From a virus, in the IMG/VR virus record IMGVR_UViG_3300042400_000292: a stretch of DNA of 38,314 bases; one strand, given 5' to 3'. The notes beneath the pieces were generated by a model. It was not told the origin of the DNA, did not search any database, and saw only the letters and a list, made by a program, of their open reading frames with translations. Positions within the stretch are counted from its first letter, which is position 1, and every line of letters starts with the position of its first letter. Position numbers and translations under genes: made by a program. This document shows positions 8,216 through 20,072 of this stretch, piece by piece.

Positions 8216-8355
8216 TGTTTTTCCTCCAGTTGTTTTTCTAACCATCGTACGCCATCTTCAAAACCTTCTTCCCATTCTTCAGAATAGTATTCTTCACTAA
8301 CTGTTGATGACCTTAATGAATTTATGTATTCTTCTATTTCTTTTTCGCTAATCAT
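8212..8355 (-). CDS. Small acidic protein (47 aa)
   Basis: Below the track cutoff. Its start overlaps the upstream stop by 8 nt and its stop overlaps the next ATG. Translation: MISEKEIEEYINSLRSS...WLEKQLEEKQ. Confidence 0.5.
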   Translation of the reverse strand: MISEKEIEEYINSLRSSTVSEEYYSEEWEEGFEDGVRWLEKQLEEKQ

Positions 8356-8638
8356 TTTTATTCCTCTCTGCGATCATTGCATCAGCTTGGTGATAAGAAT
8401 ACTCTGCAATTTGGTCATCATCTGGGCAATCAGAGATTCCCTTATTACAATAAATAGCTATATAACTTTGCATAGCCAAACCAGCAAAGTGGTCACGTAG
8501 TGATATAGGTGTAGGTGAAAACTCTTTACCGTCATGATAGCCATGACTATAAACCTCGGTTATAAATATATTTAAGCTATCTGGTGTTTTTGCAGTTACG
8601 CCATATAGTTCTGTTAGTTCTTTTATGTTATTCATCAT
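8348..8638 (-). CDS. Hypothetical early protein (96 aa)
   Basis: Track ORF. The LRDHFAGLAMQSYI ... YHQADAMIAER pattern recurs in small phage proteins of unknown function (from memory). Confidence 0.7.
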   Translation of the reverse strand: MMNNIKELTELYGVTAKTPDSLNIFITEVYSHGYHDGKEFSPTPISLRDHFAGLAMQSYIAIYCNKGISDCPDDDQIAEYSYHQADAMIAERNKND

Positions 8639-8706
8639 TCACCTCCAATGCCGTGTGCTTTTTCAATAGCTTTGTTAGCTCCCCTATACGCCATGAGCAA
8701 ATACAT
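8635..8706 (-). pseudogene. Truncated fourth member of the ..IEKAHGIGGGE paralog family (23 codons from the ATG; 37 from GTG 8748)
   Basis: Translates MYLLMAYRGANKAIEKAHGIGGE, with its stop overlapping the next ATG. It keeps only the family C-terminal cassette, and the SD before the ATG is weak. Confidence 0.35.
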
Positions 8707-8737
8707 ATAGCTACCGTTAACAACCCTATAGAAACTA

Positions 8738-8998
8738 TCACTCCCCACCTCCAGTTATGCCGTGTGCTTTTTCTATTGCTCTTGCAAAGTTACGAACCAT
8801 AAAAGTTTTACCAGCATATTTATCCCCCCATAAATCTGCTATTACATCGTCACTCAAAGGCTCACGTTTTGGTGGTGTTGTATATAAAGGTACACTCTCC
8901 ATGATAAAGCCTGTTCGTATTGCTTCTTCGGTTTCAGCACTAGCTCTAAGCCAAGTTCGTCCACCTTCTACCATAATAAATGCCGCTGGTTTACTCAT
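8738..8998 (-). CDS. Paralog family member 3 (86 aa), ends ARAIEKAHGITGGGE
   Basis: Track ORF with an ATGA overlap to the upstream gene. Carries the PLSDDVIADL ... AIEKAHGITGGGE module shared with its neighbours. Confidence 0.75.
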   Translation of the reverse strand: MSKPAAFIMVEGGRTWLRASAETEEAIRTGFIMESVPLYTTPPKREPLSDDVIADLWGDKYAGKTFMVRNFARAIEKAHGITGGGE

Positions 8999-9417
8999 TC
9001 CCCACCTCCAATACCATGTTCTTTTTCTATAATACGAACCAGCTCAACAAAACCTTTCCATTCTTTCTTTAATAATATCTTGCAGACGGCTTCATCGGTT
9101 AAAGGCTCACGTTTCAAATCCAACTCTGCTTGATAGTATCCTTTTTTATATTCTTCTAGCCCTTGTCGAGGTGTTAAAGGTTCAGGTTGGAACTCTACAT
9201 ACCTAATCCCATTGACATACACATGATCGTAGTCTTTTAAAGCACCTACTGTAAGATTCCAATTACACGCATCATCTGTAGATATAATCTTTCCTGATAC
9301 CTCTCTTTCTTTAATCGGCTCAGGTAATGTAAGAATTGCTTCTACTTCACAACTTAACGTGTGATCTAGCCACCCCGTTGCTAATACCTTCTTCAGTAAC
9401 TCTCTTTCTTTACTCAT
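8995..9417 (-). CDS. Paralog family member 2 (140 aa), ends RIIEKEHGIGGGE
   Basis: Track ORF trimmed to MSKERELLKK (ATG 9417, SD GGAGG 5 nt upstream). Carries the PLTDEAV ... IEKEHGIGGGE module. Confidence 0.75.
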   Translation of the reverse strand: MSKERELLKKVLATGWLDHTLSCEVEAILTLPEPIKEREVSGKIISTDDACNWNLTVGALKDYDHVYVNGIRYVEFQPEPLTPRQGLEEYKKGYYQAELDLKREPLTDEAVCKILLKKEWKGFVELVRIIEKEHGIGGGE

Positions 9418-9742
9418 TACCACCTCCAATGCCATGTGCTTTTTCTACTCTTCTTATCCATCTAATGACGTATCTGACTTGATGATCGTCCATATTTTCA
9501 ACAACCCCTTCTTTATCAAGAGCATATATAACATCTTCTGTTAAGGGTTTGGGTGGTGCAAACTCATTGACCCCTTGTCTAAACCCTTTCCCATACCATT
9601 CAATCTTTGTTTCTGCTAAAAGAGGCTCAGGCTCTTGCTCAGGTTGGGCGAGTAGTTGTTGAATTTCTTTAATAAAATGTAGAGGTATCCTAGACTCACT
9701 ATGGCTCGATATTCTTCTTAACAACTCTCTTTCAATGCTCAT
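9410..9742 (-). CDS. Paralog family member 1 (110 aa), ends RRVEKAHGIGGGNE
   Basis: Track ORF. The MSIERELLRR N-terminus resembles member 2. Carries the PLTEDVIYAL ... VEKAHGIGGGNE module. Confidence 0.75.
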   Translation of the reverse strand: MSIERELLRRISSHSESRIPLHFIKEIQQLLAQPEQEPEPLLAETKIEWYGKGFRQGVNEFAPPKPLTEDVIYALDKEGVVENMDDHQVRYVIRWIRRVEKAHGIGGGNE

Positions 9743-9932
9743 AATAATTCCCCCTAAAATCTATAAAAAAATCACACTCATGTTGTTTTAATTCTTTCTT
9801 AAAATCTCCGTGCCAAAAATGATCTTTTGTATCAATTTCTATACTTAAATATCTGGCACAGTTTTGTTTCTTATCGCAGTTACTTCCTAAGCAGCGTGCG
9901 TTTTCATTCGGCAGTGGATACTTCATCTTCAT
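9732..9932 (-). CDS. Small Cys-rich protein (66 aa)
   Basis: Track ORF trimmed to MKMKYPLPNE. Contains CLGSNCDKKQNCARY and HECDFF. Overlaps both neighbours. Confidence 0.6.
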   Translation of the reverse strand: MKMKYPLPNENARCLGSNCDKKQNCARYLSIEIDTKDHFWHGDFKKELKQHECDFFIDFRGNYYEH

Positions 9933-10149
9933 AATAATCTCCAATTCTAGGTACATTGCTGCCCATTATTTTTATATATAAATCTAACAAGTTCATTGCA
10001 TCATTCCAACCCTTTGGAGCTTCTTTAAGTTCCGTCTTAATTGGTGATAATGTTCCTGCTGATATTCCTGTTCGTCTTGAAATCTCTGCTTGGGATAAAC
10101 CTTCTTGTTCAAGTTTTAATATCATTACTGCCCAATCAAATTCTCGCAT
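9904..10149 (-). CDS. Small HTH DNA-binding protein (81 aa)
   Basis: Track ORF trimmed to MREFDW (SD GAGG 5 nt upstream). LSQAEISRRTGISAGTLSPI is a typical helix-turn-helix. Confidence 0.65.
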   Translation of the reverse strand: MREFDWAVMILKLEQEGLSQAEISRRTGISAGTLSPIKTELKEAPKGWNDAMNLLDLYIKIMGSNVPRIGDYYEDEVSTAE

Positions 10150-10597
10150 TTTTACCTCTGCGTCTAATTTCATCACAATACAATTCCATGTCTTTACTGC
10201 GACGCATGAACTCAACTATTGAAGCTGCCATGCCAGTTAATTTTATTGGTTTAGTTTTTTTAATAAAAGCGCAAGCTTCACGAGCGTATGGTAACCATTC
10301 CATTATTTCAGCTCTGTTAAACAACACAGTGCCATCAATATGCGTGGCAACCTGTTTTGGCATACAATATTTTTTATCCTTGATAATTCTATCCAGCACT
10401 AATGCTGTAACACCAATTAATGCCATTATTTCTTTCTTGGTTATGTTCTTTTGATTTATTTTCACAACAACATTTAGTTCTTTCAATTTATCTGATTTAC
10501 GTTTTGCAACAACTCTTACATTTATAGCTTTCTTATTCCTGTGATAATATTCCAACATTCTAACTCTTTGCTTTTCTTTGCGTTCTTCTGGTGTCAT
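10136..10597 (-). CDS. Basic DNA-binding protein with an excisionase/MerR-like HTH (153 aa)
   Basis: Start set at MTPEERKEK (ATGA overlap with the upstream 37-aa ORF). Contains ITKKEIMALIGVTALVLDRIIKD ... FNRAEIMEWL. Confidence 0.65.
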   Translation of the reverse strand: MTPEERKEKQRVRMLEYYHRNKKAINVRVVAKRKSDKLKELNVVVKINQKNITKKEIMALIGVTALVLDRIIKDKKYCMPKQVATHIDGTVLFNRAEIMEWLPYAREACAFIKKTKPIKLTGMAASIVEFMRRSKDMELYCDEIRRRGKNARI

Positions 10598-10707
10598 TGT
10601 AACCATGCCTCAATAGCTAAAATAATTCCTGCTGCAATCAAACACCAAATTTGTATTTCTTGGTGCTTAGTGAATGTGTGTATTGGTTTATTTTTATAGT
10701 CTTTCAT
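10594..10707 (-). CDS. Small membrane peptide (37 aa)
   Basis: Below the track cutoff. MKDYKNKPIHTFTKHQEIQIWCLIAAGIILAIEAWLQ has one TM segment, and its stop overlaps the next ATG. Confidence 0.4.
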   Translation of the reverse strand: MKDYKNKPIHTFTKHQEIQIWCLIAAGIILAIEAWLQ

Positions 10708-10717
10708 AATCTTATCC

Positions 10718-10745
10718 AAAAAAATGCCAGCTTTTTACGGCTGGC
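10718..10745 (-). terminator. Intrinsic terminator/attenuator inside the leftward arm
   Basis: On the minus strand: GCCAGC (10745-10740), 8-nt loop, GCTGGC (10731-10726), one A (10725), then T7 (10724-10718). It lies in the gap after the 10762 gene. Confidence 0.65.
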
Positions 10746-10761
10746 GAGTGGTTGCTTCCCC

Positions 10762-11010
10762 TCAGGAATTGCAAATTAAGTTATTAGCTTTCCAGTCCAT
10801 TGCCTTTTGAACTAAAAGATTAATACTGGTGTACTTTGGTGATAATGTTGCATTCTCTAACATTCCAAATAAATCAGAACCGTCTGTTTCTGCGATTTGA
10901 GCGTTTATTAATGCTTGGCAATAGTCTACAAAGGCTTGTGCTATTAAAATGCCACCAAGCGACTGATCTATACGCATATCAGTTATTATTTTATCAAATT
11001 GATCTTCCAT
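10762..11010 (-). CDS. Hypothetical early protein (82 aa)
   Basis: Track ORF. Its ATG shares one base with the upstream stop. No motif recognised. Confidence 0.65.
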   Translation of the reverse strand: MEDQFDKIITDMRIDQSLGGILIAQAFVDYCQALINAQIAETDGSDLFGMLENATLSPKYTSINLLVQKAMDWKANNLICNS

Positions 11011-11234
11011 TAGAATTCACCTTTGTTTGGTGCTACAAATGAAGGGACATTGCTAGGTAACTCTAGCACTTGGTAAATCTGCTCTTCACCTTTGATGTTC
11101 TTTTGGATAATAAATGCTCCGCTTCTAGTCTTGTGGATTATGTTTGAGTCATTAGTAGAAAATTTACTAATTGCTACTCCACCTGAAATAAAAGATGCTG
11201 TTAATGCTATTGCTATCATTGTGTTTTTATTCAT
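11010..11234 (-). CDS. Small secreted or membrane-anchored protein (74 aa)
   Basis: Track ORF with an N-terminal hydrophobic signal/anchor, MNKNTMIAIALTASFISGGVAIS. Confidence 0.65.
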   Translation of the reverse strand: MNKNTMIAIALTASFISGGVAISKFSTNDSNIIHKTRSGAFIIQKNIKGEEQIYQVLELPSNVPSFVAPNKGEF

Positions 11235-11240
11235 GTCGTT

Positions 11241-11282
11241 CTCTTTATAGTTGTAGTTAATGCCACGTCCTTGAGGCGGTGG
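11241..11282 (-). promoter_or_regulatory. Conserved intergenic cassette, copy 1 (hairpin plus AACTACAACTATAAAGAG)
   Basis: The minus strand reads CCACCGCCTCAAGGACGTGG-CATT-AACTACAACTATAAAGAG-N6-ATG. It is near-identical in layout to 17727-17763. Confidence 0.4.
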
Positions 11283-11285
11283 TTG

Positions 11286-11531
11286 TTATTGTGCAATGAT
11301 TGGATAAAAACCTTGATTTGGATAGTTAAGAAAGCCATTAATGCGTATTGCTTCTTTTAACTTAGATGCTGATAATGTGTATGCTGGTTGGTTATCCCAT
11401 CTTTTAGAAATTATTTCTCCGTTTCTAATATACCAGCCAGCGCAATCCATATTGTGCTTTCCTTGAATTTCTAAAGTAATCAATGTTGTTGTTTTAGAAA
11501 TGTTTTCTATTCTATAAGTTTTAGTAGCCAT
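11286..11531 (-). CDS. Hypothetical early protein (81 aa)
   Basis: Track ORF with SD AAGGGG upstream. No motif recognised. Confidence 0.65.
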   Translation of the reverse strand: MATKTYRIENISKTTTLITLEIQGKHNMDCAGWYIRNGEIISKRWDNQPAYTLSASKLKEAIRINGFLNYPNQGFYPIIAQ

Positions 11532-11577
11532 CTTATTCCCCTTTGTATTTCTTGTTAAGTTGGGTAAATAATAATAT

Positions 11578-12000
11578 TTATTTTACAGAATGTAAAGATT
11601 TTTTATCTTTCCAGAAAATAAATGCTTCATATGCTCCAACATAACCTAATCCAATACAAACGAAAGCTCCCTGTTTCTGGGCTTCCAGCAGGTATTCAAC
11701 CTGTCCATCCTGCCATTTTGAACGTGTATGATCTTGTCGTTTTAATTCACAAACGAACGCAACGCTTGCTGGAATAATAATATCTGGTGCGCCTTTCACC
11801 ATTCCTTCACTCTTTTGTTTAGTTGCCTGGTAGAAAGTTCGCAATCCTTCATTCCTAATGTGCGTAGCAATCTTTCCATAACTATCTGGATATTCTCGTC
11901 TTAACTTTGCAAAAAATGTTACTGCTTCAGCAGCTTCAGAAGGACATTCACCTCTAAACTCTTTATTGCCAAACACGGGTATATCATTGTGGAACTTCAT
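11578..12000 (-). CDS. VRR-NUC family nuclease (140 aa)
   Basis: Track ORF trimmed to MKFHNDIPVF. PD-(D/E)xK core GAPDIIIP...FVCELKRQ, then QVEYLLEAQKQGAFV as in VRR-NUC domains. Follows an SF2 helicase, which is the usual pairing. Confidence 0.8.
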   Translation of the reverse strand: MKFHNDIPVFGNKEFRGECPSEAAEAVTFFAKLRREYPDSYGKIATHIRNEGLRTFYQATKQKSEGMVKGAPDIIIPASVAFVCELKRQDHTRSKWQDGQVEYLLEAQKQGAFVCIGLGYVGAYEAFIFWKDKKSLHSVK

Positions 12001-13768
12001 CAGCTGTCCTGTTGTAGTCGTAAATTTTAAAGAAATCACCACTCTTTTTATATGTGATGGTATTTGGTGTTGTAAAACCATTATCTGTAAACTTCATAAA
12101 TGCATCATAGCTACTCTGCATTTTCATCGTAAACCAAACAGGAAATGATCTATATTCAGTTATAAAATCAACTCTTATGCACTCGTTCCCTGCTTTGCTT
12201 AGTGTGGGAGTTGCTCGCATTGCAACAACCTTATCTGTTTGGATTTGCGTCGGGTCTTTCTTTTTCATTTGGAAGTCTGCTACTAACTTACTATTTGGGT
12301 CAATTAGTTCTCCCTTGCAACTGCAACAATAACGTGCAGCAATATCATTTTCTTCTTCACAATGTGGGCATGGTTTAAACGTCCAACGATAATCACATCT
12401 AACAAGTTTTCTAATAGTTTTATTAAATACCTCACCAAAGCATCTTCTTCCATGATGCGCTGGCATCTCTCCATATTCTGTTTCTAATCGTATGCCTTCA
12501 AGATCAATAAAATAACCATTAACATCAACTTCATGCTTTGCTTCATTAAGCACTGGCGCAAATTCATTATTAGCATTGCACTGTGGGCATCTAGCTTTGA
12601 TTGGTTCACCAGCTCCGTAATCACCTGATGCTTCTATCTCAGGATTAAATAAGTCACCATCAGGACAATGACGACTAATATTTTCAGCATAATCCAGTAT
12701 CAAACAATCATCTTTATTGTTATCAATACGCAATCCTCTGCCGATTATTTGTTGGAGCAAACTAACTGACTCTGTAGCTCTTAAAATAGCTATTAAATCA
12801 ACGTGTACACAGTCAAAGCCAACACAAAGCACAGAAACATTAACTAAATATTTTAATTGCCTAGCTTTGAATTTTCGCAGTATTTGTTCACGTTCCAACT
12901 TAGGTGTTTCTCCTGTAACTATGCAAGATAAACTTGGTGGTAAAGACTGCATAACCTCGTGAGCATGTTGTACTGTCGCAGAGAAAATCATTACACCTTG
13001 TCTATCTACTGCTTGCGAAACAATATCACCTACAATCGCACTTGTGAGCCTTCCTTGACCATGATAAGCTCTATCAACATCTGCTTTTGCAAACTTACCC
13101 ATGCTATTAAGTTGCATATCCAGGGTTTCATAATGACCTGAATTAATTGCACCAATGACAGGTTTTGTTAAGTATCCTTGCTGTATTAAATCTCTGGCAT
13201 AAACAGTAAATACTCTTGCAGTAAAATAAGGGTTCTTAGTTTTATCATTTCCATAAGCATTGCCATTCTCATCCATTCTATATATATATCCATCACCAAG
13301 CCTGTATGGAGTAGCTGAAAGACCTATCACACGCAGATTAGGATTACAGGAAACTAAAGATTCAATAATACTTTTTACCGTTGGTGTTATGCGATGCGCT
13401 TCATCTAATACAACAGCACAAAATTTAGAACCAAATCTGTGTATTTTATTCTTGACGCTAACAGGTGTGCCAAAAACAACTGGATGTTTTAAACACGTTT
13501 CCCCAACGCTGGCGCTAAACAAGCTACATTCATTGCCAGTATCTCGGTATTTTTCTGCATTTTGTTCTAACAGCTCTTTTGATGGTACAAGGCATAATAT
13601 ATGCTTTCCACCACTAACTTGGTGCAATGTGTTGGCTATTGCTGCAACAATTAAAGATTTGCCACTCCCTGTTGGCAATTCTAATACGCATGGGTCAGTA
13701 CATTTCTTTATCCAGTCTATAGCAGCATCATGCGCTTGTTGTTGGTAGGGGCGGAGTTTCATAATCAT
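11984..13768 (-). CDS. SF2 DEAH-box helicase (ResIII-like) with a C-terminal zinc-ribbon extension (594 aa)
   Basis: Motif I ELPTGSGKS and motif II VVLDEAHR, with helicase-C motifs (LVNVSVLCVGFD, QQIIGRGLR). The C-terminus has CPQC ... CPHCEEENDIAARYCCSC. Confidence 0.9.
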   Translation of the reverse strand: MIMKLRPYQQQAHDAAIDWIKKCTDPCVLELPTGSGKSLIVAAIANTLHQVSGGKHILCLVPSKELLEQNAEKYRDTGNECSLFSASVGETCLKHPVVFGTPVSVKNKIHRFGSKFCAVVLDEAHRITPTVKSIIESLVSCNPNLRVIGLSATPYRLGDGYIYRMDENGNAYGNDKTKNPYFTARVFTVYARDLIQQGYLTKPVIGAINSGHYETLDMQLNSMGKFAKADVDRAYHGQGRLTSAIVGDIVSQAVDRQGVMIFSATVQHAHEVMQSLPPSLSCIVTGETPKLEREQILRKFKARQLKYLVNVSVLCVGFDCVHVDLIAILRATESVSLLQQIIGRGLRIDNNKDDCLILDYAENISRHCPDGDLFNPEIEASGDYGAGEPIKARCPQCNANNEFAPVLNEAKHEVDVNGYFIDLEGIRLETEYGEMPAHHGRRCFGEVFNKTIRKLVRCDYRWTFKPCPHCEEENDIAARYCCSCKGELIDPNSKLVADFQMKKKDPTQIQTDKVVAMRATPTLSKAGNECIRVDFITEYRSFPVWFTMKMQSSYDAFMKFTDNGFTTPNTITYKKSGDFFKIYDYNRTADEVPQ

Positions 13769-13995
13769 TAATTACTTAGTTCAATACGTTTAAAAAAAGA
13801 ATACCATTTTGATGGCTTTGCTGTATTGCCAAGCGTTAATAAACCATGATCGTTTTTTAAAATAGCTATTGCTATAGCTTTGTATGATGGAGCTAAGTTA
13901 TTTTTCATTAATTCAACAGGAACTTCATCAGGAATATCTATTGGATAACCCTGTTCTTTCCATTTATTAATATAATCTTGTATTTTCCCAATCAT
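13768..13995 (-). CDS. Small protein (75 aa) carrying the ..AI.ILKNDH.. motif also present at the IbrA-like C-terminus
   Basis: PSYKAIAIAILKNDHGLLTLG here aligns with ASWKRFAITILKNDHTCKYMG at the end of 15228..16529. The stop shares one base with the helicase ATG. Confidence 0.65.
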   Translation of the reverse strand: MIGKIQDYINKWKEQGYPIDIPDEVPVELMKNNLAPSYKAIAIAILKNDHGLLTLGNTAKPSKWYSFFKRIELSN

Positions 13996-14350
13996 TTAAT
14001 TTTATCCTTGCTGCATTGTTTGCTTCTATTTTTTGATAATCATTTAATAAAAAGAAGCCACTTTTAAATGTGCTTGGTATTTTATTTGCCAAACACATTG
14101 ATGACTGCCCAAGCCAAGCTATTCTATTTATACTTGGATTAGATAAAAAATGCTCTGAAGAATATTTCCATGTTTTTATTACTTCATCCATTGAATAATT
14201 AAACAACTCAATATCTGATAAAAAAATTGCATATTCTTCTTTGCACTGTTCTTTTGTTTTTCCATCAGGTGGAATAGTGCTATAAAATCCTGCTTTATAG
14301 CACTCCCATAGCCACCAAGGATGATAAATCCTAAGCCCATTCTTCTTCAT
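13967..14350 (-). CDS. Hypothetical protein (127 aa), member of the IbrA/IbrB-like cluster
   Basis: Track ORF trimmed to MKKNGLRIYHPWWLWECYKAGFY. Contains NRIAWLGQSSMCLA. Overlaps both neighbours. Confidence 0.65.
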   Translation of the reverse strand: MKKNGLRIYHPWWLWECYKAGFYSTIPPDGKTKEQCKEEYAIFLSDIELFNYSMDEVIKTWKYSSEHFLSNPSINRIAWLGQSSMCLANKIPSTFKSGFFLLNDYQKIEANNAARIKLNDWENTRLY

Positions 14351-14858
14351 CTGCTTCCCAACTATCAGAAAAACTACGATTTTGAAATAAAGCAGCAACG
14401 CCAGTTATTTGTTTTAATCTTAATAGCTCATCAACGCTCATTCCAATATGTTTACATATCCAGAAATCTCCTTTCCCCATTTCAACAAGCTCAGAAACTA
14501 TAGTACTCATTAATTCAATATTATGAGATCCTCTAGCTCTGTTATGTCTGATAGTAGATGCCATTCTGTCGCCAAGTTCTTTTTTAATTACAACAATTGG
14601 CAGCATGTTATTTTCACGCTCTCTTATGCGCTCACTATTTTTCATTGTTAAATAGCGGTGAAAACCATCTACTACAATGTAAATGTCTTTTGTATCATCA
14701 TAATAAGTAACAATTGGCTGCGTATATCCATCTTCCCATATTGATGTTTCTAATAAAGCCATTTCAGGTGGAGCAACTGCATTAGGGTTGTAATCATTTG
14801 CAGTTACTTGGCTAAATGGAACGCAAAGTACGTTATAAACTGGAGATTTAAATGTCAT
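14331..14858 (-). CDS. ParB/Srx N-terminal-domain protein, IbrB-like (175 aa)
   Basis: Trimmed to MTFKSPVYNV. Motifs ANDYNPNAV, IVVDGFHRY and TIRHNRARGSH are typical of ParB-like nuclease-domain (IbrB-type) proteins. Confidence 0.8.
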   Translation of the reverse strand: MTFKSPVYNVLCVPFSQVTANDYNPNAVAPPEMALLETSIWEDGYTQPIVTYYDDTKDIYIVVDGFHRYLTMKNSERIRERENNMLPIVVIKKELGDRMASTIRHNRARGSHNIELMSTIVSELVEMGKGDFWICKHIGMSVDELLRLKQITGVAALFQNRSFSDSWEADEEEWA

Positions 14859-15231
14859 ATGAATTATCCTTATTGTGGACTTCAAGTCCTGTTAATGGAG
14901 GGTTAAATACGCATAGCAGCTCTACTGTAGAAAAAGCTATAAATGAATGCGGATCATTGTTATCAAGAACGTACATTGTGCCAGGCAATATCCTATGCTT
15001 TTCTCCTGTATTTTTATTTGTAATACACCCATGTCCTTTTATGCAATAACAAGCTTCAAGATGATTTTTATAATGCCAATTTTGCTCTCCATTTGGAGGT
15101 ATTATTGTATTTGTTACAGAAAACCCCATATTGTCTTTTTCAAGCAAAAACCTTCTGCTTAAAAAACCTCCTTTTGGGCATTTAACTTCTCTTTCTGTTC
15201 CTTTTAATTCATGCAATTTAATTATTTTCAT
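14848..15231 (-). CDS. Ectoine-synthase (EctC) family cupin (127 aa)
   Basis: Collinear over its full length with EctC as I recall it: NWHYKNHLEACYCIKGHG, PGTMYVLD, NDPHSF, CVFNPPLTGLEVHNKDNSY. ATGA overlap with the IbrA-like gene. Confidence 0.8.
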   Translation of the reverse strand: MKIIKLHELKGTEREVKCPKGGFLSRRFLLEKDNMGFSVTNTIIPPNGEQNWHYKNHLEACYCIKGHGCITNKNTGEKHRILPGTMYVLDNNDPHSFIAFSTVELLCVFNPPLTGLEVHNKDNSYDI

Positions 15232-16529
15232 AATTTTTTATATTTTTCCATAATATTACGTTGTCTCAATGTTTGTTCTTTTGTTGGAGCAAATCCCATG
15301 TATTTACAGGTATGGTCATTTTTTAAAATAGTAATTGCAAATCGTTTCCATGACGCAATTTCACTATTATTATTTCTTATATCATCAGTATGGTCTGGGT
15401 ATTTTTTAATTATCACTCTAATTTTGTCTTTTCTTCCATGAGGAGTTAATCCGTTTTCTTTTATCTTTATACGGTTACTTTCTCTTAGTTGTTTTAAAGT
15501 GCTGTCTGATACGGTTTGCCCAACTCTACCCCAGTATTTTATAGACTGAACAAACCGCATTTTAAAATTTATAGAAACTTCCTCCGGTAAAGTTGCTAAT
15601 AAAAATTTAACAAATGATTTCCATGTATGGCCTTCTGGAAGTTTAAAAGTATTGTAATTAAGTTGTTTTCCATAAGTTGCTATAAAATTAGCACCTTGTA
15701 CTCTGGCACATAATTTAGCCCATGTATGAGGATCAATAACTCGATACAAGCCTAAACTAGATTTAGACTCAGACATAAATGGAGACGCAACCCTCATTCT
15801 ATGAACTGGAATACCTGCTTTATAAAAAATATCGTAAAGTTTGTTGTAATCCCAATCATATATATAATTAGCCGTCCAAACATCTTCTGTTCTCCAATCA
15901 TAAATGGGGTAACAATTATAAGAATGTTCAGTATTCTTTTTTGTCCACATTTGACCGCCTAATGTTTCCTTGCGTTGATTCATAATTGCTCTAAACCTGT
16001 TTAAACTTTCAACAGTTCTAATTCCAATTAAATTTGCGCAAGTTTTGCCTTGTGAATACCATTCTGAAAATCCATCCCAGAATTTATCGTATGGCATATC
16101 TTCTTCAAAAAATGGAAAATTATGATTTTCAAAATTAACAATGTAATCTTGTTTTGGCATAGGACGTATCCATCTTTCTTTATCTCTATTACCCCAGCAT
16201 TGCCATTCAACTGCATACGAACTTATTGTGCAAGGAAGCGTTATTGGCAAACAACACCAATAAATTTCAAGCAAATCTCTATTTGAATCAAGTATTCTGT
16301 GCATAAACTCTACAGACAATTCATAATTTGCTTCATTGTCTAAAATTTGAATACCTATTTTTTTTGTTATTCCTTTTTCCCTCATATATTTCAAAACAAA
16401 ATTAAGCATTACTCCAGAATCTTTGCCACCTGAAAATGAAATATATATTCTTTCAAAATTATTAAATATAAAATCTAATCTTTCTACGCCTGCATCCCAA
16501 ACATTCTTATTTCTGTTATAAGTTCTCAT
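15228..16529 (-). CDS. PAPS-reductase-like PP-loop enzyme with a DUF3440-type C-terminal extension, IbrA-like (433 aa)
   Basis: PP-loop ISFSGGKDSGVML. About 430 aa long with a large C-terminal extension ending WKRFAITILKNDH. Start set at the ATGA overlap with the YqaJ stop (16526-16529). Confidence 0.85.
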   Translation of the reverse strand: MRTYNRNKNVWDAGVERLDFIFNNFERIYISFSGGKDSGVMLNFVLKYMREKGITKKIGIQILDNEANYELSVEFMHRILDSNRDLLEIYWCCLPITLPCTISSYAVEWQCWGNRDKERWIRPMPKQDYIVNFENHNFPFFEEDMPYDKFWDGFSEWYSQGKTCANLIGIRTVESLNRFRAIMNQRKETLGGQMWTKKNTEHSYNCYPIYDWRTEDVWTANYIYDWDYNKLYDIFYKAGIPVHRMRVASPFMSESKSSLGLYRVIDPHTWAKLCARVQGANFIATYGKQLNYNTFKLPEGHTWKSFVKFLLATLPEEVSINFKMRFVQSIKYWGRVGQTVSDSTLKQLRESNRIKIKENGLTPHGRKDKIRVIIKKYPDHTDDIRNNNSEIASWKRFAITILKNDHTCKYMGFAPTKEQTLRQRNIMEKYKKL

Positions 16530-17389
16530 GTCAATCTCCAATAACTACTAGGAGCAGACTGGTATTTAGTTAGGTCTGCATCAGGCATTAGCTCTTTTAT
16601 GGCTTTAGCGTAGGATATAGCGCCTTCACGGTGTACTTGTGTTAGTTTGTGACCATTAATTTCACTATCCTTACCATCTGCTAACTTAACTATTTCATCC
16701 AACAATCTTTTCTTTTCTGCTTCAAGCTCTTTTATTTGCTCTGCTAACATTAAATAGCGATCAACTTGTCCTTCGCACCTAACTTGTTGGCGTTTTTCTT
16801 CAAGATACTTTTTTGCCTGCGGTAGTTCACGCTCAACAAGATATTCATTGTAGAAGTCTTTTAATTTTGGTAAATATTCTTCAATAGCTAATGGATTAAA
16901 TTGCACTGTTTCAAGCATGTAACCGTGTGCAGACCATTGGTAAAAATGACACCATTGGCGACCAGTAACAAATAATTGGATTTGTATCTGTAACCAGTAA
17001 TGCGTTTGGTAGTCTATGCTTTTAAATTCTGGTGGGTTCTTGTCACGCAACCCATATGGGCATTTAATCTCTATCAATAAATTGTCCCCAATCAAACCGT
17101 CTGGTGATGCTCCAAGCCAATCTTCAAAAGTATGAAAACCAGTTTCTACGACTTTTGTATTAAACTTCAATTCGTAATCAGCTAAAGCATTGGGTTCGTT
17201 ATACGTTCCATAGCTAGTCGCAACATTACCGGTAAACTCACTTGGGTAGCCATGATATTGACGCACCATATTACGCATAACATCTTCTGGCTTCATGAAT
17301 GGTGAAAATCCTAGAATTGCACCGACATTACTTCCAGTTACACGACCATTTCTTTTTTTAAACCATTCTTCTGTACGTTGTTGTTCCAT
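16526..17389 (-). CDS. YqaJ-type (lambda-Exo-like) recombination exonuclease with a coiled-coil tail (287 aa)
   Basis: EEWFKKRNGRVTGSNVGAILG, then the PD-(D/E)xK core ASPDGLIGDNLLIEIKCP. The C-terminal ~90 aa are coiled-coil-like. Confidence 0.85.
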   Translation of the reverse strand: MEQQRTEEWFKKRNGRVTGSNVGAILGFSPFMKPEDVMRNMVRQYHGYPSEFTGNVATSYGTYNEPNALADYELKFNTKVVETGFHTFEDWLGASPDGLIGDNLLIEIKCPYGLRDKNPPEFKSIDYQTHYWLQIQIQLFVTGRQWCHFYQWSAHGYMLETVQFNPLAIEEYLPKLKDFYNEYLVERELPQAKKYLEEKRQQVRCEGQVDRYLMLAEQIKELEAEKKRLLDEIVKLADGKDSEINGHKLTQVHREGAISYAKAIKELMPDADLTKYQSAPSSYWRLT

Positions 17390-17400
17390 AAATAATATCC

Positions 17401-17718
17401 TTATATTTTATTAACAATAGCCAACAACATGGCGTTATTTTCAAAATTCTTAACTCCAAGTAATAAATTTGCGATTGCCTTAATATCTTCTTGAGCTGTT
17501 GAAAGATGTCTTTTTGAAGGTCTGCCAATTTGCAATCCAGTTACTTCTTTAATGTGCTGGATATTTGATATAGTAATTTCATAATCAAATATTAATTCCA
17601 TTGATTCAGCAATAGACTTGTATTCAACATTTCTGTACAACTCAATATCTGCTTCTATTTTTTTTGAAATTTCCCAAACTTGTTTTTGAGTCAATCTGTT
17701 TACATTTTTTTCAGTCAT
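17401..17718 (-). CDS. Hypothetical protein (105 aa)
   Basis: Track ORF, preceded by the conserved intergenic cassette. No motif recognised. Confidence 0.65.
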   Translation of the reverse strand: MTEKNVNRLTQKQVWEISKKIEADIELYRNVEYKSIAESMELIFDYEITISNIQHIKEVTGLQIGRPSKRHLSTAQEDIKAIANLLLGVKNFENNAMLLAIVNKI

Positions 17719-17726
17719 TTTATTTA

Positions 17727-17763
17727 CTCTTATAGTTGTAGTTAGAAATGCACATCCATGTGC
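17727..17763 (-). promoter_or_regulatory. Conserved intergenic cassette, copy 2 (hairpin plus AACTACAACTATAAGAG)
   Basis: The minus strand reads GCACATGGATGTGC-ATTTCT-AACTACAACTATAAGAG-N8-ATG. It shares TATAGTTGTAGTTA and flanking bases with 11241-11282. Confidence 0.4.
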
Positions 17764-17772
17764 GTTTGTTAT

Positions 17773-18282
17773 TTACCAGGGGATTGAATCAATATCAACA
17801 ATGCTTGGCTCTGCTGACTTTTCTTCTTTAACTTGTGTAGCACCTTTGCGTGGAGCTACAGAAGCCACCCAATTACCAGTTTTACCTTCTAAATCCCATA
17901 CCATTACTTTTATCAACATTGGTTTATGCAGTAATGCTTTAGCCATTGCCGTGTCATTTGGGGATTCATCAGACTGTGCTAACTTACCACCGCAGTTTGC
18001 ATCAATAGCTGCCAACATCTTTTTAGCTTTATCTGCTTTTTTAGAGTCAACATCAAATACACGCACTTTTTGAAATATCTTGCGTCCTTTGTAAATAGCA
18101 GGTTCAGCTATTACCCATCGCAGACTGATGTATTCATCACCTTGATATTCAGCTAATCCAGCCTCGTCAATCATAGCCAAACAAGTTGTATTGTCTGGTA
18201 TGTTTTCAATCATGCCACCAGAGGTGAATTCACCATTTGTTGTAATTTCTTGGTTGTCGCTTGTTGTCCAAAAGTTACTCAT
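17773..18282 (-). CDS. Putative ssDNA-binding protein (DUF669-like) with an SSB-like C-terminal tip (169 aa)
   Basis: Lies in the Sak4 recombination module. The C-terminus EEKSAEPSIVDIDSIPW resembles the acidic D-D-D-I-P-F tip of bacterial SSB. Confidence 0.55.
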   Translation of the reverse strand: MSNFWTTSDNQEITTNGEFTSGGMIENIPDNTTCLAMIDEAGLAEYQGDEYISLRWVIAEPAIYKGRKIFQKVRVFDVDSKKADKAKKMLAAIDANCGGKLAQSDESPNDTAMAKALLHKPMLIKVMVWDLEGKTGNWVASVAPRKGATQVKEEKSAEPSIVDIDSIPW

Positions 18283-18297
18283 TTTTTTATTCCTAAG

Positions 18298-18975
18298 TTA
18301 TGTTGTAAATTTATTGCCTTTTGATAAATTATCAGAAGCTGTTAAATATTGAAGATTGTTAATAACATGGAGTCCACATACTAATTCTCCTTTAATTGGA
18401 ATGATATGATCAACATGCATTCCTTTCGGACAATTTTTATATATTTCTTTTATCTCATTTAAATCAGCCCACAAAGGAGTTGCATTTAATTTTTGCATTT
18501 GTCTTAATCTGCATCTATGCAACCCTTTTTTTGGGTTTTGTTTTTGATATTTACTGTTATTTCTTCTAATATCATTTATGTTATTTTTTCTATATTCTTT
18601 GTAATAAAGACTTCTTTTATCTTTATTTTTTTCATGCCATTCTAGTTTTTTTTCTTTACCGCCATTTAAGTAATATTTCTTTTGTATTTCAGTTCTTTTT
18701 TCTGGATTGTTTTGTTGCCAAATCTTAGATAATTGCAAAGCATGATCTTTATTTTTCTCATACCATGCTTTGCTTTTAGCATTTAATCTTTCAGTATTTT
18801 TTTTATAATATTGAGCTTTTTTTTCAGTAATAGCTTCAATGTTATCTAATCTATACTTATTAACTTTTTCTTTAACACAATCAGCGCAAACGTTGTTATA
18901 ACCATCTTTATTGCTTTTAGCTTTATAAAATAAATCTAAATGCTTTTCTATATTACATTTTTTACAAGTTTTCAT
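18298..18975 (-). CDS. Free-standing HNH endonuclease (225 aa)
   Basis: N-terminal CKKC...CADC, a K/N/Y-rich helical repeat region, and a C-terminal HNH core HVDHIIPI...NLQYLTASDNLSKGN. Very AT-rich and bounded by its own intergenic spacers. Confidence 0.8.
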   Translation of the reverse strand: MKTCKKCNIEKHLDLFYKAKSNKDGYNNVCADCVKEKVNKYRLDNIEAITEKKAQYYKKNTERLNAKSKAWYEKNKDHALQLSKIWQQNNPEKRTEIQKKYYLNGGKEKKLEWHEKNKDKRSLYYKEYRKNNINDIRRNNSKYQKQNPKKGLHRCRLRQMQKLNATPLWADLNEIKEIYKNCPKGMHVDHIIPIKGELVCGLHVINNLQYLTASDNLSKGNKFTT

Positions 18976-19028
18976 TTTAAAAAATCCATAAAGATAAAAA
19001 TAAATTATAACACGTTTATCTTTTTGGG

Positions 19029-19787
19029 TTATTTATTTATAGAAGGTATTAACTCAATTAAAGGATTGATACCTTTTTGTACAATCAAATCTTTTTCAAT
19101 TCCAAAACGGTTTTTAGATATATTTGCTGCTGTTGCATAAGAAACTAATATTCTTGTTCCATCAGATAATGCTTTTTTGCGTTCTCCATCACCAAAGGTA
19201 TGAGTTTCTAGTTTTAGGTAAGCCACCATATCGACATTATCTATAAAATGGCTAACAGACTTCTTCTGCATACGGATGTTGTATCTTGTATAAGGATCTT
19301 GGTCTGGCAACTCTATTGTTTCTGTTTCACTATGTGCAATAAATACTATATTCATAGCCTTGACTTCATTAAGTATGCCAGCAGCTTTACGAACCCTGCC
19401 ATGCAAACTTGATAACGCTTGGAAGCCAGCACCATAACCTCCAAGTGCTTGGGCAATCGTTCTGGGCTTTTTAGGATCAGTATCAACAATGTGATTTGTG
19501 AACAAATTATCAAGCTGAGTGACGCTATCAATAACCAATGTTTTATAATCATGATCTTCCTTGATTAATGCAGTTAGTTGTTCCCACAACATATCTACAT
19601 TTGATAATAATGGAAAAGCATCAGGTCTTGTTGCTGTTGGTATGGCTTGCAAACCATCTTCTGCACGAATAAAGATTGGTTTTGGAAAGGTGGCAGCTAA
19701 ACTGGTTTTACCCAATCCTGCATCACCTGTTATAGTGCAAATGATCGAACGATCATCTGGTTTAGCAATAGAGCTTAGTATGCTCAT
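19029..19787 (-). CDS. Sak4-like RecA-fold ATPase / single-strand annealing protein (AAA_24-type, 252 aa)
   Basis: Walker A ITGDAGLGKTSLA and Walker B-like TLVIDSV. First gene of the leftward arm, with SD AAGGAG. Confidence 0.8.
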   Translation of the reverse strand: MSILSSIAKPDDRSIICTITGDAGLGKTSLAATFPKPIFIRAEDGLQAIPTATRPDAFPLLSNVDMLWEQLTALIKEDHDYKTLVIDSVTQLDNLFTNHIVDTDPKKPRTIAQALGGYGAGFQALSSLHGRVRKAAGILNEVKAMNIVFIAHSETETIELPDQDPYTRYNIRMQKKSVSHFIDNVDMVAYLKLETHTFGDGERKKALSDGTRILVSYATAANISKNRFGIEKDLIVQKGINPLIELIPSINK

Positions 19788-19827
19788 GGTATTTCTCCTT
19801 TGTTAAAAATCTTTTTCTCTAATTCCG

Positions 19828-19856
19828 TTGCACATTTTACTTAAATAATTTAGAAT
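19828..19856 (+). promoter_or_regulatory. Sigma70-like promoter for the rightward arm
   Basis: TTGCAC (19828-19833), 17-nt spacer, TAGAAT (19851-19856), about 45 nt upstream of ATG 19902. Confidence 0.45.
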
Positions 19857-19861
19857 TGCAA
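19834..19861 (-). promoter_or_regulatory. Sigma70-like promoter for the leftward arm, interlocked with the rightward one
   Basis: The minus strand reads TTGCAA (19861-19856), 16-nt spacer, TAAAAT (19839-19834), about 45 nt upstream of ATG 19787. Confidence 0.45.
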
Positions 19862-19901
19862 CACCTAAAACAAAATAATTTTTAACAAAGGGAAAAAAAT
19901 A

Positions 19902-20072
19902 ATGTTCACACCAGAAGAAATCATAAAAAAACTGCAACCTTTAAACTTAACTTATCTATCAAAGAATACTGGCATTAAATATAATGTATTGTGGAAGTTT
20001 GCCAATAATAAATTGAAGATTATTCCTTATGATTTAATTAAAAGACTGAGTGACTATTTCAATGTTGCCTGA
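19902..20072 (+). CDS. Small HTH-like protein (56 aa), first gene of the rightward arm
   Basis: Below the track cutoff. SD AAGGGA. LTYLSKNTGIKYNVLWKFANN looks like an HTH. Overlaps the primase start by 11 nt. Confidence 0.5.
   Translation: MFTPEEIIKKLQPLNLTYLSKNTGIKYNVLWKFANNKLKIIPYDLIKRLSDYFNVA

Follow-up and report, generated by a model that had tools for sequence, protein, structure and literature searches.

A phage-encoded cupin of the ectoine synthase family within a five-gene IbrA/IbrB cassette: probable recruitment to another substrate

The virus record IMGVR_UViG_3300042400_000292 of the IMG/VR database is a phage genome with a guanine plus cytosine (GC) content of ~35%; the whole stretch of 38,314 nucleotides that was analysed is referred to here as the window. 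An open reading frame (ORF) on the minus strand of the window (14848..15231, ATG start) encodes a protein of 127 amino acids (aa), here named EctC*. In this study, we show that EctC* is a genuine full-length cupin of the ectoine synthase (EctC) family. It is almost certainly a component of a five-gene cassette consisting of IbrA, EctC*, IbrB and two small proteins, p143 and p75. We propose, with a probability of roughly 0.6, that EctC* is an EctC-derived Fe(II) cupin which forms one subunit or step of this coupled phage cassette and was recruited to another substrate. EctC* is very probably not an auxiliary metabolic gene (AMG) for ectoine.

Family profiles, sequence comparison and fold comparison all assign EctC* to the ectoine synthases. 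Pfam PF06339 (Ectoine_synth) matches residues 1-126 (E 2e-44, 151.2 bits as compared to a cutoff of 27), and the NCBIfam model NF009806 'ectoine synthase' scores 153.6 bits against its curated cutoff of 128. The best sequence matches in the PDB are EctC of P. lautus (PlEctC; 5ONM, 5ONN and 5ONO, 3e-27) and of S. alaskensis (5BXX, 5e-26). A model of EctC* obtained with AlphaFold2 (AF2) from an alignment of 37 sequences has a predicted local distance difference test score (pLDDT) of 92. When this model was searched with Foldseek, the top 8 matches were all EctC crystal structures, with template modelling (TM) scores of 0.85-0.97, 41-43% identity and E ~1e-13; the root-mean-square deviation to 5BXX is ~1 Å. 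Generic cupins rank after EctC (E ~1e-7, TM ~0.66, 17% identity). Since the family-profile, PDB and Foldseek matches all put EctC first, the likeness is specific to EctC and goes beyond the generic cupin fold. An earlier note on this DNA, made from the letters alone, had placed a full-length protein of the ectoine synthase family at 14848-15231. Pfam, NCBIfam, PDB and Foldseek agree with this placement, the strand being minus, and the alternatives it had named, mere cupin-fold likeness or a closer match to another cupin family, are answered by the EctC structures lying far ahead of other cupins. The peptides that it quoted (NWHYKNHLEACYCIKGHG, PGTMYVLD, NDPHSF and CVFNPPLTGLEVHNKDNSY) are all found in the translation. 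Its statement that the protein is collinear with EctC without gaps holds for the collinearity but not for the gaps, as one 2-residue and one 1-residue indel separate EctC* from PlEctC. Against PHROGs v4, EctC* matched no family at E<=1e-3. The EctC* domain is thus invisible to PHROG-based annotation, even though fusions of the type found in phage Gaia (see below) are public, and pipelines based on Pfam or NCBIfam label it 'ectoine synthase'.

The active site of PlEctC provides the frame for judging what EctC* has retained. The metal ligands are Glu-57, Tyr-84 and His-92; the substrate is contacted by Trp-21, Arg-25, Asn-38, Thr-40 and Tyr-52 as well as Glu-57, the product by Ser-23, Asn-38, Tyr-52 and Glu-57 along with Phe-106 (PMC6344544). 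Trp-21, which works on the substrate like a piston, is invariant in 437 cluster-encoded EctC proteins, and the W21A variant retains 9.7% activity (PMC6344544). The EctC domains of 169 loci were aligned to one profile and split by context into 90 cassette-linked, 19 EctB-linked and 60 other non-cassette sequences. Fourteen positions are invariant across all context classes (S23, R25, T40, Y52, H55, E57, Y84, F106, N107, P108, P109, G112, E114 and H116, PlEctC numbering), and the iron-ligand position H92 is kept in 89 of the 90 cassette-linked proteins. In the window protein, the iron triad is intact as E59, Y87 and H95, which correspond to Glu-57, Tyr-84 and His-92. For the iron ligands the earlier note was right about the Tyr and the His but not about a Glu 'shortly before HYK': the ligand is E59, which lies in H-L-E-A after HYKNH. 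The counterparts of further substrate and product contacts (S25, R27, T42, Y54 and F109) are all kept.

Around these retained residues the cassette-linked proteins share a set of nearly fixed changes. Trp-21, present in 19/19 EctB-linked and 59/60 other sequences, is replaced by Phe (87) or Gly (3) in the 90 cassette-linked proteins (F23 in the window), and in all 90 the stretch that aligns with PlEctC 12-30 is devoid of Trp. Position 50, which holds I, L, M or F outside the cassette, is Trp in 89/90 (W52 in the window). The adjacent Trp-51, mostly conserved in non-cassette proteins, is His in 87/90 (H53). Val-59 of the non-cassette proteins has become Cys in all 90 (C61), and the mostly conserved Leu-94 has become Phe in 89 (F97). 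Arg-95 (R in 19/19 EctB-linked and 45/60 other sequences) is lost throughout, with E, Q, I and others but never Arg in the cassette (I98 in the window). Cys is also frequent at position 18 of EctC*. In the register of cupin motif 1, G(x)5HxH(x)4E(x)6G with E57+7 = G64, positions 50 and 52 sit at the two classical His sites; judged from this register, the Trp gained at position 50 is most likely part of the metal pocket's lining.

Position 38 was considered as a discriminator between canonical and cassette proteins and dropped, because His occupies it in most canonical sequences sampled. The PlEctC contact Asn-38 is therefore not universal (His in 18/19 EctB-linked and 58/60 other canonical sequences); the window protein has Thr, and the cassette clade T 69, H 16, C 3 and S 2.

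A neighbour-joining tree contains one bipartition with all 74 unique cassette-linked sequences plus L055 alone, a locus that has the cassette-clade signature and a truncated context. In IMG/VR, exact DNA matches number 66 for the signature of the cassette proteins, W-H-Y-x-N-H-x-E-x-C-Y-C, and 0 for the canonical signature, Y-x-N-H-x-E-A-V-Y-C. By tree and signature, EctC* is a distinct, essentially viral clade within the ectoine synthase family, and these sequences suggest that viral EctC-like genes are, in their great majority, members of the cassette-bound clade. One subclade (P0072; L172-L174) shows a 2-residue deletion, Gly at the Trp-21 position, the order IbrA, p143, p75, EctC, IbrB, a longer IbrB (227-aa) and a VRR-NUC nuclease directly upstream of IbrA. 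The earlier note had likened EctC* to the 'solitary EctC' proteins of bacteria. This likeness holds insofar as no ectAB genes are nearby; it fails at the tryptophan, which published orphan EctC proteins keep, sometimes shifted by two residues (PMC6344544).

The second line of evidence is gene context. An alignment-based scan of IMG/VR yielded 238 EctC relatives, of which the best 80 were examined, and further loci came from a protein search and from three look-ups of gene context. For the census, all stop-to-stop ORFs of the loci were searched with the window proteins. This gave 92 loci in which an EctC-like gene is accompanied by IbrA and/or IbrB. IbrB is found in 92, IbrA in 88, p143 in 88 and p75 in 85 of them, and missing partners are mostly at contig ends. 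In the window, all five genes are present, co-oriented and overlapping. An independent sample of 30 non-duplicate IMG/VR loci, selected by DNA pattern, contained all four partners in 24 cases. Neither ectA nor ectB was found in these 30 loci or in the ~120 cassette loci overall. A phmmer search with EctA and EctB from a genuine ectABC locus likewise detected no homologue in the 38-kb window, which bears out what the earlier note had said of this genome.

The order of the genes varies in an informative manner. In 36 loci, IbrA is followed by EctC and IbrB in one reading frame, then by p143 and p75; in 35 loci the same order occurs with separate EctC and IbrB genes, as in the window. Rearranged orders are IbrB, p143, p75, IbrA, EctC (3 loci), IbrA, p143, p75, EctC, IbrB (3 loci) and an EctC-IbrB fusion followed by p143, p75 and IbrA (2 loci). 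Orders with a p143-p75 fusion account for 3 loci (L059, L086 and L089), and the remaining 10 of the 92 are partial sets, several of them with an EctC-IbrB fusion. All told, 44 loci have EctC and IbrB in a single reading frame. Such Rosetta-stone fusions, combined with the circular permutations, argue strongly that the cassette is one functional unit.

Among 50,697 phage records, tblastn detected an EctC-like protein in five only. An EctC-ParB fusion, gp104, is found in the Mycobacterium phages Gaia (two records) and Nebkiss beside the 3'-phosphoadenosine 5'-phosphosulfate (PAPS) reductase gp103, and the Gaia-type gp104 is named 'ectoine synthase/ParB multidomain protein' in GenBank. In Pseudoalteromonas phage XCL1123 the genes follow one another as PAPS reductase, EctC, ParB. 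The three-gene order is hence shared by cultured phages whose hosts are unrelated. The faecal record MT835761.1 (L003, 'UNVERIFIED: Bacteriophage sp.') holds the sole canonical-type ectC among the phage records searched. It was rejected as a phage ectC and is probably bacterial DNA, because a class-III EctB-like aminotransferase lies directly upstream, Trp-21 is canonical and the record is marked 'UNVERIFIED'. Among the best 80 matches in 185,579 species-representative genomes, the cassette occurred in three only, all of them contigs of metagenome-assembled genomes (MAGs) assigned to Gallionella, Bacteroidota and Planctomycetota; those with enough flanking sequence are phage-like (holin, GH108 lysozyme, sliding clamp, zinc-ribbon helicase). 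Another 19 of these 80 matches have ectB upstream, and ~58, mostly Marinobacter, have neither ectB nor the cassette. The positionally solitary genes sampled, again mostly Marinobacter, show the canonical signature and are not part of the cassette clade. Pairs of IbrA and IbrB without the cupin are found in Streptococcus, Lactobacillus and Chlorobiaceae phages. Since these cupin-less pairs also lack p143 and p75, the three genes are an add-on: EctC*, p143 and p75 extend a two-gene IbrA-IbrB core.

IbrA matches PF11922 (5e-60) and PF01507 (1e-9). Its PP-loop SFSGGKDSG is invariant, and a cysteine cluster CC-x6-C-x10-C is conserved (C96, C97, C104 and C115, numbered along the 437-aa ORF). The true start is likely the ATG at 16529, which overlaps the stop of the upstream YqaJ gene in ATGA; the ORF list gives a TTG at 16541. 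Profile comparison of IbrA with the PDB gave weak matches to LarE, a [4Fe-4S] U34 thiolase and PAPS reductase. IbrB matches phrog_2159 (1e-74) and likely starts at the ATG at 14861, as compared to the TTG at 14885 of the ORF list. Its profile matches ParB (4UMK, 6e-4) and Noc (7OL9, 2e-3) in the PDB, and the match to the ParB-fold serine kinase SbnI is not significant. By sequence and by profile, the PP-loop matches of IbrA and the ParB/Noc/SbnI matches of IbrB are too weak to assign a chemistry. When the window is compared with L001, L002 and others, cassette IbrA proteins are 65-73% and IbrB proteins 74-81% identical, including Gaia versus the window with its 35% GC, whereas the identity to EctC-less pairs is 41% for IbrA and 50-59% for IbrB. 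Judged by these identities, the IbrA subtype co-varies with EctC*. IbrA and IbrB are unusually conserved across hosts and GC contents, more so than EctC* itself, for which the identity among cassette loci is ~48-64%.

The two small partners are less familiar. The protein p143 has the motifs W.WEC... and W..SCE..LSN...NR.AWLGQ, and its 41 database relatives are all without a Pfam domain. No match was found in Pfam or PHROG, none in the PDB by profile and none by Foldseek (best E 2.2). Its AF2 model consists of six helices and is all-alpha (pLDDT 94.8). Its only neighbour in BFVD is an unnamed viral protein; with 116 aa, this protein has the length of the XCL1123 gene downstream of IbrB. According to this model, p143 may represent a new fold family specific to the cassette. 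In contrast, p75 is paralogous to a part of IbrA (residues ~382-416). The cassette was also considered as a catalogued defence system and rejected: PADLOC gives a weak DndC/BrxP match for IbrA alone, and the other four cassette proteins have no match.

Two readings had been put forward in the earlier note, an auxiliary gene for osmolyte synthesis and a cyclodehydratase recruited to a different substrate through its coupling to IbrA and IbrB. The 92 loci, the 44 EctC-IbrB fusions and the two extra partner genes favour the latter. Under the recruitment model, EctC* would keep the chemistry of EctC: Fe(II) would act as Lewis acid on an amide carbonyl, and attack by a neighbouring amine would yield a cyclic amidine. 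The reaction may also run in reverse, as hydrolysis. The pocket would be remodelled for a substrate other than N-gamma-acetyl-2,4-diaminobutyrate (N-gamma-ADABA). In the most economical pathway, IbrA might, like other PP-loop enzymes, adenylate a carboxylate or carbonyl and form an amide or amidine with ATP, thereby replacing the acetyl-CoA-dependent EctA step, and EctC* would then process this amide or amidine. IbrB could tether or target the machinery to DNA or to a nucleotide, or add an ATP- or CTP-dependent step. What results would be either a modified nucleic-acid base or a small molecule derived from a nucleotide, to the benefit of phage replication, e.g. by evading host nucleases. The cassette sits among helicase, exonuclease, single-stranded-DNA-binding protein (SSB) and primase genes. 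It is a tentative part of the proposal that IbrA makes the amide or amidine on a nucleobase, that EctC* closes or opens the cyclic amidine and that the ParB/Srx-like protein directs the process to DNA; the specific EctC* chemistry and its nucleic-acid target are put forward with the same reserve. If true, the cassette would bring about a new DNA hypermodification, or else a signal or decoy made from a nucleotide, by which the phage is shielded from host defences, and the cross-phylum identity of IbrA and IbrB (65-81%) would reflect a tightly constrained multi-enzyme machine.

Several points weigh against recruitment to another substrate. Most substrate and product contacts of EctC are kept, which makes residual or real activity on N-gamma-ADABA possible, and Phe for Trp is a conservative replacement. 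The pocket-lining position of W52 and C61 was judged from the cupin-motif register and strand alternation, and the canonical comparison set is mostly Marinobacter. No signature enzyme of DNA modification (transglycosylase, methylase or glycosylase-like) is constant beside the cassette. In PADLOC, IbrA weakly matches DndC (1e-7, local) and BrxP (2e-4).

The alternative that survives best is that EctC* is a non-enzymatic sensor of a small molecule or metal which regulates the DNA-binding IbrB, in the manner of regulators combining a cupin with a helix-turn-helix (HTH). An N-terminal cupin joined to a ParB/HTH-like part, as in the 44 fusions, is a typical sensor-effector architecture. Sensing would also fit the legacy view that IbrAB activate the expression of prophage genes, and the cupin is an add-on without which IbrA-IbrB pairs work in Streptococcus, Lactobacillus and Chlorobiaceae phages. 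However, the catalytic set E57, Y84, H92, T40 and Y52 and the lid residues F106, N107, P108, P109, E114 and H116 are kept down to 39% identity, a constancy exceeding the usual demand of ligand sensing. Moreover, p143 and p75 as well as a distinct subtype of IbrA come with the cupin, a set that resembles an extended pathway more than a regulatory switch. A regulatory role is therefore regarded as unlikely.

Still less likely is the reading as a working ectoine synthase, an AMG which would convert host-made N-gamma-ADABA to ectoine and osmoprotect the infected cell. EctC* does exceed the curated ectoine synthase cutoffs, keeps the metal triad and retains 4/6 substrate contacts, and this is the interpretation given in the virome papers PMC12647753 and PMC13079714. 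In addition, expression of a solitary EctC of P. syringae in an ectC mutant of Halomonas led to ectoine being made (PMC5924519). Yet this reading, which was the first of the two in the earlier note and had been framed for a halophilic or marine host, is not supported. The genes ectA and ectB are missing from the window as well as from the cassette loci, Trp-21 is never present in the cassette clade, and the protein is cassette-bound and in 44 loci fused to a ParB-like protein. EctC* belongs to a monophyletic clade with its own fixed substitutions, it lies in an early replication operon coupled to nucleic-acid enzymes, and the canonical signature is without a match in IMG/VR. The cassette also occurs in phages of non-halophiles, such as a soil Mycobacterium phage (host Mycobacterium smegmatis), and on the Gallionella, Bacteroidota and Planctomycetota MAG contigs.

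A third possibility is sulfur chemistry similar to DndC/DndB phosphorothioation or to PP-loop thiolases, with EctC* in a sulfur relay or in the processing of a thio-intermediate. DndC and BrxP as the nearest defence models of IbrA, its weak contact with LarE and the [4Fe-4S] U34 thiolase, its cysteine cluster, the IbrB motif DGFHR, which resembles the DGQHR motif of DndB, and the Cys at position 59 (invariant) and 18 (frequent) of EctC* point in this direction; it is nevertheless highly doubtful, as all likenesses to sulfur enzymes are weak and local, the cassette has no cysteine desulfurase and no equivalents of DndD, DndE, SspB or SspC, and EctC chemistry has no known sulfur step.

The positions of the cassette and of its surroundings are collected in Table 1. 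The window encodes a large terminase, an SU10-type portal, a primase-helicase, an AAA_24 protein, an SSB-like protein, a YqaJ exonuclease and a superfamily 2 (SF2) helicase. A megablast search of the window against sequenced phages gave no nucleotide-level match, so that it does not correspond to a known phage, and tRNA and Rfam scans of the window for clues to host or regulation found nothing. EctC* lies within a minus-strand block of replication and recombination genes, with the IbrA-like gene upstream and the IbrB-like gene downstream, and is part of the coupled string YqaJ-IbrA-EctC*-IbrB-p143-p75-helicase. The YqaJ-type exonuclease occurs in 15/92 cassette loci and is a context gene, no constant member. 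The zinc-ribbon SF2 helicase adjoins the cassette in 28/92 loci and may be functionally tied to it; elsewhere it is found in the MAG loci L143 (8158..9690) and L151 (99..1739) and at the 5' ends of L172 and L173.

Table 1. Features of the window around EctC* and junctions between the coupled genes
Feature	Position	Strand	Description
SF2 helicase	11984..13768	-	ResIII + Helicase_C, C-terminal zinc ribbons; coupled to p75
p75	13768..13995	-	75 aa; free-standing C-terminal DUF3440 motif (IPDEVP...APSYKAIAIAILKND..LG)
p143	13967..14350	-	127 aa from ATG 14350; conserved partner
IbrB-like	14331..14861	-	ParB/Srx-fold (DGFHR, STIRHNRARG), HTH-like C-terminal part
EctC*	14848..15231	-	Fe(II) cupin of the EctC family, from the viral clade linked to IbrAB; 127 aa
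IbrA-like	15228..16529	-	PAPS-reductase-type PP-loop ATPase + DUF3440
YqaJ-type exonuclease	16526..17389	-	Directly upstream of IbrA and translationally coupled to it
225-aa protein	18298..18975	-	C-terminal endonuclease VII/HNH-like region, lysine-rich repetitive middle; N-terminal zinc-ribbon segment like Lar-like restriction-alleviation and HNH families
Early/replication block	~8300..19800	-	GC skew about -0.11 to -0.27; flanked by plus-strand blocks
Divergent intergenic region	~19790..20050		Separates the AAA_24 gene from the primase-helicase; probably early promoters or origin
YqaJ stop / IbrA start	16526-16529	-	ATGA overlap
IbrA stop / EctC* start	15228-15231	-	ATGA overlap
EctC* / IbrB	ATG 14861	-	14 nt inside EctC*
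IbrB / p143	ATG 14350	-	20 nt inside IbrB
p143 / p75	ATG 13995	-	29 nt inside p143
p75 stop / helicase start		-	TAATG overlap

A search of the accessible literature library for papers linking ectoine synthase with IbrAB, ParB or PAPS reductase found none, and the sole prior trace of the association are the GenBank product names of Gaia gp104 and of the XCL1123 genes. Viral ectoine synthase genes have been read as osmoprotective AMGs (PMC12647753, PMC13079714), and one of these two papers states that ectoine synthase genes were previously known only from prokaryotes. EctC* passes the NCBI and Pfam thresholds for 'ectoine synthase'. The ecological inferences drawn in PMC12647753 and PMC13079714 should be re-examined, and the present reading corrects an emerging misannotation. 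Moreover, the cassette proteins are a natural set of EctC variants, with the active-site Trp relocated and a Cys added, and offer a handle on the role of EctC proteins encoded outside ect clusters. Two components of the cassette are without a known family, one of them without a structural match in the PDB. As the cassette is present in the cultivable phages Gaia, Nebkiss and XCL1123, its function is directly testable.

Compared with known systems, EctC* is closest to EctC (PF06339; 5ONM, 5ONN and 5ONO of P. lautus, 5BXX and 5BY5 of S. alaskensis), with which it shares the fold, the length, the single-domain cupin architecture, the Glu/Tyr/His iron ligands, S23, R25, T40, Y52 and F106 and the C-terminal lid. 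It differs by the replacement of Trp-21 by Phe or Gly, the Trp at 50, W51H, V59C, L94F and the loss of Arg-95, and it is never beside ectA/ectB but within or fused to the IbrA/IbrB cassette. Solitary or orphan EctC-type proteins of bacteria, reportedly described by Czech et al. in 2018 and 2019, e.g. from Pseudomonas syringae B728a, resemble EctC* in being products of an ectC-type gene without ectAB nearby; they have been reported with the Trp, sometimes shifted by 2 residues, in contrast to 0/90 in that segment of the EctC* clade. Pairs of the DndC/DndB and QueC/DpdB type share with the cassette a PP-loop ATP pyrophosphatase, a ParB/Srx-fold protein and a DNA-related context, and to our knowledge no cupin is known in these systems. 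Unlike Dnd, Ssp and Dpd, the cassette lacks DndA/D/E, SspB/C and DpdA partners, and the similarity is weak and local (DndC 1e-7). Dnd, Ssp and BREX type 4 are recognised by a DndC/SspD-type protein together with DndA/D/E, SspB/C or BrxC/PglZ, a combination which the cassette does not have. The core of the cassette, a PAPS-reductase-like DUF3440 protein with an overlapping ParB-like gene, is the same as in IbrA/IbrB of E. coli ECOR-9, in their chromosomal counterparts YbdN/YbdM of E. coli K-12 and in phage pairs. Such IbrA-IbrB pairs are known from Streptococcus, Lactobacillus, Flavobacterium and Chlorobiaceae phages without EctC*, p143 and p75; around this core, the five genes form a compact, widely distributed and previously undescribed cassette.

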